The notes beneath the pieces were generated by a model. It did no database searches, was not told where the DNA came from, and saw only the letters and a list, made by a program, of their open reading frames with translations. The translations under genes were made by a program, and so were the position numbers. A DNA stretch of 64,000 nt from Escherichia phage BF17. The DNA is taken from sequence record MW822008.1. One strand, given 5' to 3'. Shown here in pieces: positions 46,909 through 50,050 of this stretch (position 1 is its first letter; each line of letters begins with the position of its first letter).

Positions 46909-46933
46909 CTTCGAAAATAAAGAAAAAAAGATG

Positions 46934-46961
46934 TTGACAACGCCGAATGATGTGTTATAAT
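46934..46961 (+). promoter_or_regulatory. strong sigma70-type promoter P1 (TTGACA-N16-TGnTATAAT)
   Basis: TTGACA 46934-46939; TGtTATAAT ending 46961. Confidence 0.6.
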
Positions 46962-47025
46962 GACCACCACGAAGCAAGTTTTCAAAATCACAAGATGTGA
47001 GATTGAAAAAGAAATAAAAAAGTTG

Positions 47026-47053
47026 TTGACAAGCCTGAACGATGTGATATAAT
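47026..47053 (+). promoter_or_regulatory. strong sigma70-type promoter P2 (TTGACA-N16-TGnTATAAT)
   Basis: TTGACA 47026-47031; TGaTATAAT ending 47053; about 92 bp downstream of P1 with similar flanks. Confidence 0.6.
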
Positions 47054-47115
47054 GACCACATCAAGACGGCAAAGAGAAATGCCTTTTTAAATACATGGAT
47101 GATTCATGAAGTAAC

Positions 47116-47159
47116 AAAGGAACTGATAAGTTAAAAATTCTTTTAACACAGTTCCTTTA
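47116..47159. promoter_or_regulatory. perfect 10-bp inverted repeat (AAAGGAACTG ... CAGTTCCTTT)
   Basis: Arms at 47116-47125 and 47150-47159 with 24-nt spacer; overlaps the -35 of P3. Confidence 0.5.
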
Positions 47160-47184
47160 CTTTTGCCCACGGATTGGCTATAAT
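47156..47184 (+). promoter_or_regulatory. sigma70-type promoter P3 (TTTACT-N17-TATAAT)
   Basis: TTTACT 47156-47161; TATAAT 47179-47184; about 40 nt upstream of the ATPase ATG. Confidence 0.5.
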
Positions 47185-47224
47185 AGAAACCTAAACGATT
47201 TTATCCAACAAAAGGAAAATATAC

Positions 47225-48553
47225 ATGTCTACTCAAAACAACGATATCCTGAACGTAAAACTGACTCCTAAGAAAGCTAAAGAAGCAATGGCACTGGCTG
47301 ACATGATTCAAGATAGCCTGATGATTTGGGGTAGCCCTGGTATCGGTAAATCTGCTATCGCACGTCAATACGCTGATGAGAACTACCCACTGCGTAAAGA
47401 TAACGTGGCAAAAATTGAGTTCATGAAACAACAAATCGAAGCTGATACTGAAAATGCTGATCAACTTCGCCGTGAACTGGCAGCGTTTGAAGCCAAACTA
47501 ATCGACCAAGACACTAACTTTATCGATTTCCGTTTGTCTCAGATTGAACCAAGTGACCTTCGCGGTATTCCAGTTCCAGAGAAAGTGTTCCTTGATATGG
47601 ATGGTAAGCAACTGATTGAATCTGAACTGGCTAGTGCACAAGATTACATCGCTGAAACAGCAGTTGTGTGGGCAGCACCTAAAGTACTGAAACTGTCTCC
47701 AGATTGGAAAGGTGTTATTCTGTTTGACGAAATCAACTCTGCAATGCCGATTGTACAGGCAGCGTCTTATCAGCTAATCCTCGACCGTTGTGTTGGTGAG
47801 ATGAAGCTACCTAAGACTGCACTGATTCTCGCAGCAGGTAACCGTGAAACTGATGGCGGTGTAACGTTCTCTCTAGCTACACCACTGCGTGACCGTATGA
47901 CCCACATCGAAATGATTCCTTATCATCAAGATTGGATTAACGATTATGCGATTGGTAAGCGTTTGAACCCAGCAACTGTAGCGTTCATCAACAACACTGG
48001 TGCTAAACACTTCAACACCCTTAGCCCACAAGATCCTTCTCACTGTGGTGGTACTTCTCCACGTTCATGGGAAGCAGTAGCACGCTACGAAGATCTGAAG
48101 AAAGTTAAGAACATTGATAAAGAAGTGTTCCGTGCGATGATTGCAGGTCGTGTTGGTGAAGGCGTAGCAACTGAATACATCGAGTATGTTGATAACGTAG
48201 CTAAACTACCAGATACCATGTCCATCCTACAGGGTGAGATTAAAGAGATTGATGCTTCGCTTGATATTTCCGCGAACTACTTCATCACTCTGAATCTGGT
48301 TTACAAAATTATCGACCTCTACAATGAGAAGCAAGAACAACGTCTACCAGTGGAAGATTGGGGTAAGCTGTGCAACAACTTCATCACCTTCCTAGACCAT
48401 AACTTCTCTGCAACTCAAGCAGAACTGGCAGTACTGGCGATTCGTACCATCACGCTTCATAAAGTAGCGATTACGATTAAAGATGTACCAGCGTTTAAAG
48501 ACTTCGTTATGAAGTACTCTGACCTAGTACGTAAAGCACGCTCTCTTGGTTAA
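47225..48553 (+). CDS. AAA+ ATPase, MoxR-like
   Basis: Walker A GSPGIGKSAIA, Walker B VILFDEINSA, single AAA module of about 440 aa. Confidence 0.7.
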   Translation: MSTQNNDILNVKLTPKKAKEAMALADMIQDSLMIWGSPGIGKSAIARQYADENYPLRKDNVAKIEFMKQQIEADTENADQLRRELAAFEAKLIDQDTNFIDFRLSQIEPSDLRGIPVPEKVFLDMDGKQLIESELASAQDYIAETAVVWAAPKVLKLSPDWKGVILFDEINSAMPIVQAASYQLILDRCVGEMKLPKTALILAAGNRETDGGVTFSLATPLRDRMTHIEMIPYHQDWINDYAIGKRLNPATVAFINNTGAKHFNTLSPQDPSHCGGTSPRSWEAVARYEDLKKVKNIDKEVFRAMIAGRVGEGVATEYIEYVDNVAKLPDTMSILQGEIKEIDASLDISANYFITLNLVYKIIDLYNEKQEQRLPVEDWGKLCNNFITFLDHNFSATQAELAVLAIRTITLHKVAITIKDVPAFKDFVMKYSDLVRKARSLG

Positions 48554-48574
48554 TAATTAAAAAGAGTGTTGACA

Positions 48575-48605
48575 AGAAGGATACCACATGGTATCCTTCT
48601 TTTAT
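48575..48605 (+). terminator. intrinsic terminator
   Basis: Perfect 11-bp hairpin AGAAGGATACC-acat-GGTATCCTTCT followed by T-rich run; TTGACA hexamer directly upstream. Confidence 0.65.
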
Positions 48606-48628
48606 CTTAACTAAACGAGGAAATACAA

Positions 48629-50038
48629 ATGTCAGATAAACGTTTCAGTGATGTTACTCCGGCTCTCCAGAAAGAATGTCAAGATCGTCTGATCTTAGCT
48701 CGCACATCTTTAATGCTAACATTCCCATTCTTTGGTGTACTGGCTTCTCGTCTGCGTCCAGTTGCAAACAATACATGGTGTCGTACTTTGGCAGTAGATG
48801 GTAAGCATTTATTCTACAACGTAGAATTCATCATGGGTATTCAGGACCAATCCAAAAAGACCGCATACGAAGAAGCAATTCGTGAGAAACATCCTGAAGT
48901 AACTGAAGAACAACTTAAAGAAATGACAGAAGGTTTGACTGATGAAAACCTGATTGCAGTTATCTGTCATGAGATTCTTCACTGTGCATATGACCACTTC
49001 TTGCGTCGTGGTATGCGTGACCCGCAGCGTTATAACCGTGCTGCTGACTATGCAATTAACCAGATTCTTGTTCGTGATAAAATTGGTAAAATCCAAAGCC
49101 AATGGCTGTACGATAAAAAGTACGATGGCATGACTGCTGAAGAGATTTATAACATTCTCGAAGAAGAAGATAAGCAGGATCAAGACGGAGAAGGTGAAGG
49201 TAACCCACAGGCTGGTAGTGGTGAGGGCGAAGGTAAATCACGTGGTACTTTTGGCGATATCAAAGATGGTAAAGGCAAAGGTACAACAATTGACCAGCAT
49301 GACGTTCCACAAGAAGGTCAAGAGGGTGGTTCAAGTGAGAAACAAAAACGTGATTATATGGATGATTTCAAAACAGCAATGATGAATGCTGCTCGTGCAG
49401 GTGGTACTCCTGCTGAAATCGCACGTATGATTAACAACTTCAAAGAACCAAAGATCGACTGGCGTTCTAAACTTCACCGCACGCTACGTAGCTGGTTGAA
49501 GTCTGACGCAACTTATCAAAGTCCTAATCGTCGTTCATGGGGTGCTGGTTTTGGTAGTACTGGTTCATTCTACGGGAATCCAATCTTCCCTGGCATGAAA
49601 CCTGATGATGATATTGATATTGCAATTGCACTAGATGCATCCGGTTCTATCTCTGAAGATATGCTCCGTGATTTCATCAGTGAAGTACTGGGTATCACTA
49701 AGCAGTTTAAACAATTTAAAATCCGTATCATGACGTTCGATACTGAAGTTTATACTGTAAAAGATTACAAAACTGGTGAAGAGAGTAAGATTCTTGAATA
49801 TCCAGTGAAAGGTGGTGGTGGTACTGACTTTGAAGCAGTATGGGTTCATATGAAGCATGACAACTATAAGCCAAAACAGCTTATTATGTTTACTGATGGT
49901 GAGCCGTGGCAGTCATGGGGCGATCCTGATTACTGTAAGACACTGTTTGTTATCCACAGTAATCCTAACAAACAAGCACCATTTGGTGAAACTGTACACT
50001 ACGAATATGAAGCTGACAAAAAGCGTCAACGTAGCTAA
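48629..50038 (+). CDS. VWA-domain protein with N-terminal HExxH metallopeptidase-like motif (DUF2201-like)
   Basis: HEILHCAYDH zinc-binding-like motif; MIDAS motif in DIAIALDASGSIS; immediately downstream of the MoxR-like ATPase. Confidence 0.65.
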   Translation: MSDKRFSDVTPALQKECQDRLILARTSLMLTFPFFGVLASRLRPVANNTWCRTLAVDGKHLFYNVEFIMGIQDQSKKTAYEEAIREKHPEVTEEQLKEMTEGLTDENLIAVICHEILHCAYDHFLRRGMRDPQRYNRAADYAINQILVRDKIGKIQSQWLYDKKYDGMTAEEIYNILEEEDKQDQDGEGEGNPQAGSGEGEGKSRGTFGDIKDGKGKGTTIDQHDVPQEGQEGGSSEKQKRDYMDDFKTAMMNAARAGGTPAEIARMINNFKEPKIDWRSKLHRTLRSWLKSDATYQSPNRRSWGAGFGSTGSFYGNPIFPGMKPDDDIDIAIALDASGSISEDMLRDFISEVLGITKQFKQFKIRIMTFDTEVYTVKDYKTGEESKILEYPVKGGGGTDFEAVWVHMKHDNYKPKQLIMFTDGEPWQSWGDPDYCKTLFVIHSNPNKQAPFGETVHYEYEADKKRQRS

Positions 50039-50050
50039 GTACTAAATAAT

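Follow-up and report, generated by a model that had tools for sequence, protein, structure and literature searches.

A MoxR-vWA-metallopeptidase gene pair was described in 'group 2.2' jumbo phages by Iyer, Anantharaman, Krishnan, Burroughs and Aravind (Viruses 2021), who proposed that it acts in virion assembly and peptidolytic processing by analogy with Acidianus two-tailed virus (ATV). In ATV, p618 (MoxR) and p892 (VWA) make up the sole viral pair with an experimentally supported role (cited in Iyer et al. 2021). Genes 24 and 25 of phage N4 count among the 14 genes that make up the core set in N4-like phages and are transcribed as middle genes in N4, and the GenBank notes of RaK2 (2012) and phAPEC6 already name genes of these phages N4 gp24-like and gp25-like. 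Here we examine a MoxR-like ATPase gene and the VWA gene that follows it in a stretch of 64,000 nucleotides (nt) from Escherichia phage BF17 (MW822008.1), which we call the window; the pair lies within positions 46,909-50,050.

In this paper we describe the two proteins, their neighbourhood and their transcription signals. We think it on balance probable that the pair is a MoxR-VWA remodelling machine with a probable zinc peptidase on its adaptor, that it is expressed by the host RNA polymerase independently of the structural genes, and that more motor than adaptor is made. Such a pair is already described and widespread, and the window adds a well-conserved member, not a new kind of system. 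What is new here is the set of promoters and terminators belonging to each gene, an RNA leader, a five-gene cassette, and a correction of both the terminator picture and the 'HNH' label.

The ATPase and the VWA protein

A first-pass annotation of the window had pointed out two open reading frames (ORFs) and four motifs, among them a metal ion-dependent adhesion site (MIDAS), and all of them are present in the translations. Lengths are given in amino acids (aa).

47225-48553, plus strand: predicted MoxR-like AAA+ ATPase, 442 aa, N4 gp24 homologue (motifs, alignment, model, fold search, hhalign)
47330-47353, plus strand: Walker A of the ATPase (GSPGIGKS)
47726-47731, plus strand: Walker B of the ATPase (ILFDEINSA), D168/E169
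48629-50038, plus strand: predicted zincin-like (HExxH) and VWA/MIDAS protein, 469 aa, N4 gp25 homologue (Pfam, alignment, model, hhalign)
48968-48982, plus strand: HExxH of the VWA protein (in HEILHCAYDH)
49634-49648, plus strand: MIDAS DxSxS of the VWA protein (in DASGSIS)

The AAA+/VWA domain assignment made in that annotation was right, but for the ATPase it needed structure and family context, since the Pfam result is marginal (AAA 21.5 bits, cut-off 21.2; AAA_3 17.9 bits, cut-off 27). The protein is assigned to PHROG 1297, 'ATPase'. A database search returned 272 relatives, of which the distant ones (31-34% identity) bear AAA_3, AAA_5 and bpMoxR; in the family, AAA_5 was found in 13/33 members, AAA_3 in 11/33 and bpMoxR in 8/33 (Pfam at E <= 0.001). 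Invariant in 33 homologues are G36, G39, K42 and S43 of Walker A, D168 and E169 of Walker B, the sensor-1 N206, R224, and P279-R280 of the SPR motif; judged by motif position, these residues point to an AAA+ core with intact Walker A and B, sensor 1, arginine finger and sensor 2. The AF2 (AlphaFold) model of the monomer has a predicted local distance difference test (pLDDT) score of 87, and a Foldseek search of the Protein Data Bank (PDB) with this model placed NorQ, with and without the NorD VWA domain, and CbbQ2 at the top (E ~1e-6; target-normalised template modelling score ~0.6; sequence identity 11-13%), with McrB, dynein and Rea1 behind them. We accept the name 'MoxR-like' for the modelled ATPase on its fold, motifs, family and pairing with the VWA gene.

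For the second protein the profile search for DUF2201 that had been proposed gave 126.5 bits for DUF2201_N ('putative metallopeptidase'; cut-off 23.2) and 77.8 bits for DUF2201 ('VWA-like'; cut-off 26.4), while the generic VWA profile scored 20.8 bits, below its cut-off of 23.8. The HExxH region also has weak matches to PhageMetallopep and Peptidase_M48. Among 33 homologues, down to 43% identity, the HExxH residues H114, E115 and H118 and the complete MIDAS (D336, S338, S340, T399, D423) are invariant; candidates for the third zinc ligand are H123, which is nearly invariant, and D140, E171 and D222/H224, which are invariant. The model (pLDDT 76) has disordered stretches at 190-232, which is Gly/Glu/Lys-rich, and at 296-326, and pLDDT falls below 50 at 190-216 and 227-232. 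Fold search supports the VWA fold, with BchD among the matches, and the sequence gave at best weak integrin matches in the PDB.

The label 'HNH endonuclease', which this protein carries in PHROG 1314 and in many GenBank records, was considered and rejected: Pfam at E <= 0.01 yields only DUF2201_N, DUF2201 and VWA, and the label is a propagated mis-annotation. Phage fEgEco12 is a case in point, with g308 labelled 'ATPase' and g309 'HNH endonuclease'.

Homology to the N4-like proteins was measured against phage G7C, where hhalign gave 99.85% probability with gp24 (247 columns) and 99.9% with gp25 (370 columns).

Gene linkage, cassette and distribution

The 3.1-kb pair region has 99% identity with Escherichia phages WPEC5, EC.P1 and fEgEco12, and ~87% identity with 121Q, PBECO4 and phAPEC6, which are jumbo myophages of 350-380 kb. 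The relatives' records with an assigned genus are Asteriusvirus, and fEgEco12 is placed in the 121Q/PBECO4 group of coliphages. In fEgEco12 the genes upstream of the pair form a block for the tail sheath, the tail tube, head completion and virion proteins; downstream are a DUF2493/DprA-like gene and thymidylate synthase, and then tail-fibre genes on the opposite strand. Guanine plus cytosine content is 0.39-0.45 in the two genes of the pair and 0.33-0.42 in the neighbours, a contrast that is not striking, and the idea of a horizontally transferred oddity was rejected as an explanation of the pair.

ORFs were called in 103 loci from cultured phages, IMG/VR contigs and bacterial genomes, and the proteins were clustered. 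The ATPase gene accompanies the VWA gene in 96/98 loci and is directly upstream of it in 80, with occasional homing endonucleases or small ORFs inserted between the two. Around them is a five-gene block of fixed order, c2, ATPase, VWA, (c6), c8, c3, outside which the flanking genes vary. This cassette is common to 121Q/RaK2/GAP32-like jumbo phages and to a large clade of uncultured aquatic viral contigs, whose VWA protein has ~39-41% identity. In the 80 loci with enough flanking sequence the ATPase was found in 77, c3 in 67, c2 in 63 and c8 in 53. In the window the other cassette genes, and the thymidylate synthase gene beyond them, are as follows.

46531-46908, plus strand: c2, 125 aa, PHROG 15638, first cassette gene (modal offset -2 from the VWA gene)
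50148-50378, plus strand: c8, ~77 aa, acidic and helical, PHROG 13789 (in 53/80 loci)
50381-51034, plus strand: c3, 217 aa, PHROG 15894 (in 67/80 loci; detected by mass spectrometry in phAPEC6 and fENko-Kae01)
51633-52562: thymidylate synthase gene, downstream of the pair

Sequence and profile searches with c2 and c3 gave no match in Pfam or the PDB, and c8 gave none in Pfam. The 125-aa upstream gene is called 'transcriptional regulator HdfR' in fEgEco12, a name to which Pfam lends no support.

Relatives of the VWA protein occur in 732 of 50,697 phage records, which include N4-like, rV5-like and PA5oct-like phages, Bacillus phage G, and Campylobacter and Aeromonas phages; with metagenomes included, 14,793 representatives of 50%-identity clusters were matched at E <= 0.001. 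The pair is thus among the most widespread phage gene pairs of untested function. In the N4-like phage G7C, dCTP deaminase and ThyX are downstream of the pair, and in the alphaproteobacterial genomes of Brucella and Ancylobacter the prophage-like regions that contain the pair also have genes for DNA ligase and a Pol III beta clamp.

Promoters, terminators and the RNA leader

The predicted transcription signals of the pair are these.

46913-46967, plus strand: P1, perfect sigma-70 promoter with A-rich UP-like tract (-35 at 46934-46939, TGT-extended -10 at 46956-46961)
46979-47009, plus strand: AT-rich hairpin in the P1 transcript, between P1 and P2 (-9.8 kcal/mol, z = -3.4)
47005-47059, plus strand: P2, perfect sigma-70 promoter, tandem copy of P1 (-35 at 47026-47031, -10 at 47048-47053)
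47054-47224: conserved RNA leader (in other loci L004, which is RaK2, 5913-6136; L112, 975-1122; L034, 5477-5606)
47116-47164, plus strand: T1, terminator-like hairpin (47116-47158) and UUUACUUUU tract in the leader (-15.4 kcal/mol, z = -4.8)
47156-47184, plus strand: P3, TTTACT-17-TATAAT, 10/12, its -35 being the U-tract of T1
47165-47178, plus strand: small hairpin GCCCA-CGGA-TTGGC with conserved YGGA loop, in the P3 spacer
48569-48609, plus strand: T2, intergenic terminator hairpin (48574-48601) and T-run (-18.9 kcal/mol, 47-nt segment folded)
overlapping T2 (48569-48609), plus strand: promoter-like TTGACA-17-TATCCT
50051-50081, plus strand: T3, terminator after the VWA gene with 9-bp stem (hairpin 50051-50072) and T-run (-14.2 kcal/mol)
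50086-50113, plus strand: promoter GGGACA-N13-TGATATAAT for downstream genes

Three tandem consensus promoters had been claimed in front of the pair. Two of them stand, as P1 (46934-46961) and P2 (47026-47053) both match TTGACA-16-TGnTATAAT exactly and are perfect 12/12 extended -10 sites; P3 reaches only 10/12. In 64 kb, three 12/12 sigma-70 matches were seen against 0.19 expected, and two of the three are P1 and P2. These two form a 55-nt tandem repeat with 82% identity, 92 nt apart, in which the A-rich upstream tract is included. P1 is kept in A4, G17 and RaK2, and the homologous site of fENko-Kae01 has -35 GGGACA; P2 was found in Asteriusvirus relatives only and is absent from RaK2. The -10 of P3 is good in Asteriusvirus only, reads TATCAT in RaK2 and is unrecognisable in GAP32-like phages.

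Across ~95 loci, which are dominated by one aquatic clade and hence non-independent, a sigma-70-like promoter (>=10/12, <=120 nt upstream) precedes the ATPase gene in 67% and the VWA gene in 70%; by the same criterion it precedes 13% of other genes and 0-10% of c2, c3 and c8. The predicted layout, in which each gene of the pair has its own host-type promoter and its own terminator, is clearly conserved across distant phages.

Strong terminators had also been said to bracket the pair. This is right in part only. The upstream candidate, an AT-rich inverted repeat at 46888-46920 in the 3' end of the upstream gene, was rejected as a terminator, being followed by an A-run with no T-run. The picture is instead one of T1 between P1/P2 and the ATPase gene, T2 between the genes and T3 after the VWA gene. 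The U-tract of T1 overlaps the -35 of P3; the annotation of phage G17 also has T1 as a terminator, and its arms diverge yet still pair in RaK2, fENko-Kae01 and GAP32-like phages. At least 13 diverse loci have a hairpin and T-run at the T2 position, the stems being unrelated in sequence. Examples come from the window, from RaK2 and fENko-Kae01, from GAP32-like phages and from the aquatic clade; in this clade a TTGACA...TATAAT promoter lies 3' of the intergenic hairpin. At the T3 position RaK2 has a hairpin stem of different sequence.

The leader follows a plan shared by ~5 genera: a strong promoter whose -10 is extended and whose -35 reads TTGACA or GGGACA (in the GAP32-like group, a promoter without a clear -35), a YAAGAC box, the terminator-like hairpin, the U-tract, the small YGGA-loop hairpin, and then ~45 nt before the ribosome-binding site. 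In nine sequences of the YGGA hairpin, from ~5 genera, one stem pair is AU (4), CG (3) or UA (2). A scan of 46500-50500 against Rfam matched no known RNA family. The leader could act as an attenuator, bind a protein or form the 3' end of a short RNA. Transcripts from P1 and P2 would either read through a leaky or regulated T1 or stop there as RNAs of 100 and 190 nt. In RaK2 the start annotated for gp053 (L004 6193) appears to lie 60 nt downstream of the proper one: the conserved AAGGA ribosome-binding site is followed by an in-frame ATG at 6133, which is aligned with the start in other phages.

Other promoter-like sites in the window

T4-type late promoters were rejected as an alternative drive for the pair: the motif TATAAATA occurs once in the 64 kb, not near the pair. 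The single occurrence (3840-3847) compares with 8.3 expected by chance, so that this motif is strongly avoided. On the plus strand, GGGACA-N13-TGATATAAT has three exact matches (19372-19399, 31081-31108 and 50086-50113) against 0.06 expected, which looks like a second promoter class or a -35 variant tolerated in these phages. At 16722-16782 (promoter 12/12) and 28299-28350 (11/12) a sigma-70-like -10 is followed directly by a terminator hairpin; transcripts from these promoters would escape termination because they start inside the hairpin, and transcripts from upstream would stop. The overlap of T1 and P3 (47116-47184) has a related design.

Discussion

By analogy with CbbQ-CbbO and NorQ-NorD, the ATPase would assemble as a hexameric ring on which the VWA protein would dock as the scarcer adaptor. 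The MIDAS metal site of the adaptor may grip an acidic residue of a target protein, which ATP hydrolysis would pull on or remodel, and the target would probably also be cleaved, as the adaptor carries an invariant HExxH zinc-peptidase-like domain. Host sigma-70 RNA polymerase would transcribe both genes from their own promoters, apart from the surrounding structural genes, and because these promoters are of the host type we would expect expression early or in mid-infection; terminators within the leader and between the genes would set the ATPase dose above that of the adaptor. What the analysis shows directly are the domains and catalytic motifs, the homology, the linkage of the pair and the layout of its promoters and terminators; complex formation, stoichiometry, proteolysis, timing and substrate are what we infer for the pair. 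The substrate is slightly more likely to be a replication-phase phage or host protein complex than a virion protein; thymidylate synthase downstream of the pair in the window, dCTP deaminase and ThyX in G7C, and ligase and clamp in the prophage-like loci are context in favour of our reading as a whole. The question is open to direct testing in E. coli with N4, G7C or 121Q-like phages.

Several points weigh against a remodelling machine of this description. Two fold searches with the VWA protein returned VWA matches only and none to the N-terminal HExxH domain, and this domain, putatively a peptidase, could bind metal without cutting. The ATPase sequence and family profile gave generic Walker A matches only in the PDB, and since the protein's own Pfam scores are at or below the cut-offs, the MoxR assignment depends on the predicted fold and on distant family members. 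The first-pass annotation had spoken of unusually strong early expression; the early part is plausible, given the host-type promoters and the middle genes of N4, but strong expression is uncertain because T1 may stop most P1 and P2 transcripts and limit them to leader RNA. The non-independence of the surveyed promoter loci reduces the weight of that survey, and gene neighbourhood in phages often mirrors timing and not function. In the searchable literature on N4 gp24/gp25, phage DUF2201 and phage MoxR we found genome descriptions and the 2021 comparative paper, with no bacteriophage functional experiment and no report of peptidase activity; the PA5oct omics paper leaves the pair unmentioned. 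The earlier statement that no phage role is established is correct for bacteriophages, and it overlooked the hypothesis of Iyer et al., the ATV precedent and the homology to N4 gp24/gp25. Lastly, the pair adjoins the structural block in the window, and in CsCl-purified phAPEC6 the ATPase orthologue gp265c was detected with 6 peptides and 19% coverage; both fit a role in assembly.

The strongest alternative is accordingly the one proposed by Iyer et al. (2021), a virion-assembly chaperone and protease that folds or assembles large tail or fibre proteins and trims them, as might be modelled on ATV p618/p892 in extracellular tail growth. We regard it as unlikely, though with a real chance of being right. 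It is a published proposal for a pair of this very architecture in jumbo phages, and it suits the position of the pair directly after the tail sheath/tube, head-completion and virion-protein block and before the tail-fibre genes. It also suits the detection of the ATPase orthologue in CsCl-purified phAPEC6 virions and in the fENko-Kae01 preparation, in both of which c3 was found as well (in phAPEC6 as gp262c, by 1 peptide). The VWA protein, however, is absent from phAPEC6 (gp264c) and was not detected in fENko-Kae01, and the CsCl-purified virion table of RaK2, which passes from gp051 to gp060w, contains neither the ATPase (gp053), the VWA protein (gp054), c3 (gp056) nor thymidylate synthase (gp059). 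Over the three proteomes the result for a conserved virion component, which the first-pass annotation had set against its own proposal, is mixed, with the ATPase in 2/3 and the VWA protein in 0/3. The phAPEC6 particle list also holds SSB, RecA, topoisomerase, thymidylate synthase and PhoH, and the fENko-Kae01 sample was a 300-kDa ultrafiltrate in which 220 phage proteins were found, DNA polymerase included; the presence of such proteins in the two lists indicates carry-over of abundant proteins. The detection of the ATPase therefore means that it is expressed and abundant, and that it is a putative virion protein at most. The much greater scarcity of the VWA adaptor fits the intergenic terminator and the stoichiometry of one adaptor per hexamer in the NorQ-NorD entries. 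As a separate matter, thymidylate synthase and several replication proteins in phAPEC6 and fENko-Kae01 particles could represent either carry-over or real packaging.

Other evidence against assembly comes from gene organisation. The pair has sigma-70-type promoters of its own, and terminators set it apart from the structural block. In N4 the homologues belong to the middle genes and adjoin nucleotide-metabolism genes, and prophage-like elements place the pair with DNA ligase and clamp genes. These phages, moreover, already encode a prohead protease.

Host takeover or anti-defence, the role for which the first-pass annotation had put the pair forward, is in our judgement improbable. The machine would then extract and cleave a host protein early in infection, such as a defence effector, a nucleoid protein or a respiratory complex. 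Host-type promoters make early expression possible, the wide spread among large virulent phages of different families is as for a general host-directed function, and MoxR-VWA modules reportedly occur in bacterial conflict systems. We found no positive evidence for the proposal: neither protein matched any PADLOC model (E <= 0.01), an NCBIfam search of both gave nothing useful, and the literature offers no support for anti-defence. Anti-defence genes are usually variable accessory genes, whereas this pair belongs to the core genes of N4-like phages and here lies within a conserved cassette, and as these phages infect hosts from Bacillus to marine bacteria, the pair would require one host target conserved in all of them.

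Least probable, and only remotely so, is a metal-cofactor insertase like NorQD, CoxDE, CobST or BchID that loads a metal or cofactor into a phage enzyme with HExxH as its metal-handling site, for although the closest solved folds are CbbQ and NorQ (with NorD, a cofactor-insertion system), BchD is among the VWA matches and nucleotide-metabolism genes recur near the pair, an HExxH whose Glu does not vary is the signature of zincin catalysis, the domain is a putative peptidase according to Pfam, no client enzyme co-occurs consistently, and c2, c3 and c8 are without recognisable enzyme domains.

The remodelling machine that we favour can be extended into a bolder and rather doubtful proposal, in which the pair is the core of a separately regulated five-gene cassette that has an RNA leader of its own and that large lytic phages, from N4 to jumbo phages of 350 kb, need as a targeted unfoldase-protease in mid-infection. 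It might, for example, take apart a replication-phase complex of the host or of the phage, with the small cassette proteins as its substrates, adaptors or inhibitors, and P1/P2 with T1 would in addition give an abundant short regulatory RNA.

Comparison with known systems

The pair of Iyer et al. (2021) has the same architecture as that of the window, a MoxR AAA+ gene next to a gene for a vWA protein with an N-terminal metallopeptidase domain, and we infer from this architecture that the window pair is their system. Their account covers neither the promoters and terminators of each gene nor the leader, and mentions neither the cassette of five genes nor a connection with N4 gp24/gp25.

N4 gp24/gp25 of the Schitoviridae are homologous to the jumbo-phage pair over their full length and have the same gene order, and N4-like gp25 has the Pfam architecture of the jumbo VWA protein, DUF2201_N and DUF2201. 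The jumbo ATPase is ~90 aa longer than G7C gp24, with two insertions in its first half at residues 54-94, modelled as two helices (61-73, 78-91), and 139-152; in the jumbo VWA protein HExxH is preceded by a helical insert that gp25 does not have, and the disordered Gly/Glu-rich linker is longer than in gp25. The N4 pair is transcribed by phage RNA polymerase II as middle genes, whereas the jumbo-phage pair has host sigma-70-type promoters, and N4-like loci are without the c2, c8 and c3 partners.

NorQ-NorD and CbbQ-CbbO are, like the phage pair, two-gene systems of a MoxR ATPase and a MIDAS-bearing adaptor, and in the NorQ-NorD PDB entries a single VWA chain (G) accompanies six chains of NorQ (A-F). 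Both systems have metabolic enzymes as clients, namely nitric oxide reductase and Rubisco. Unlike the phage VWA protein, the NorQ-NorD and CbbQ-CbbO adaptors are without an HExxH peptidase domain. The same is true of p892, the VWA protein of ATV, an archaeal virus whose pair was compared with the phage pair at the level of domains.

FtsH and other AAA+ proteases combine an AAA+ motor with an HExxH zinc peptidase and so unfold and cut their substrates, and the comparison with them is a functional analogy without a claim of membership. FtsH is one polypeptide of the classical AAA clade, whereas the phage pair is made of separate proteins with a MoxR-like motor and, as we propose, targeting through the MIDAS. 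If this proposal is true, an ATP-driven protease that is targeted by a MIDAS and consists of two separate proteins would stand apart in its design among AAA+ proteases.

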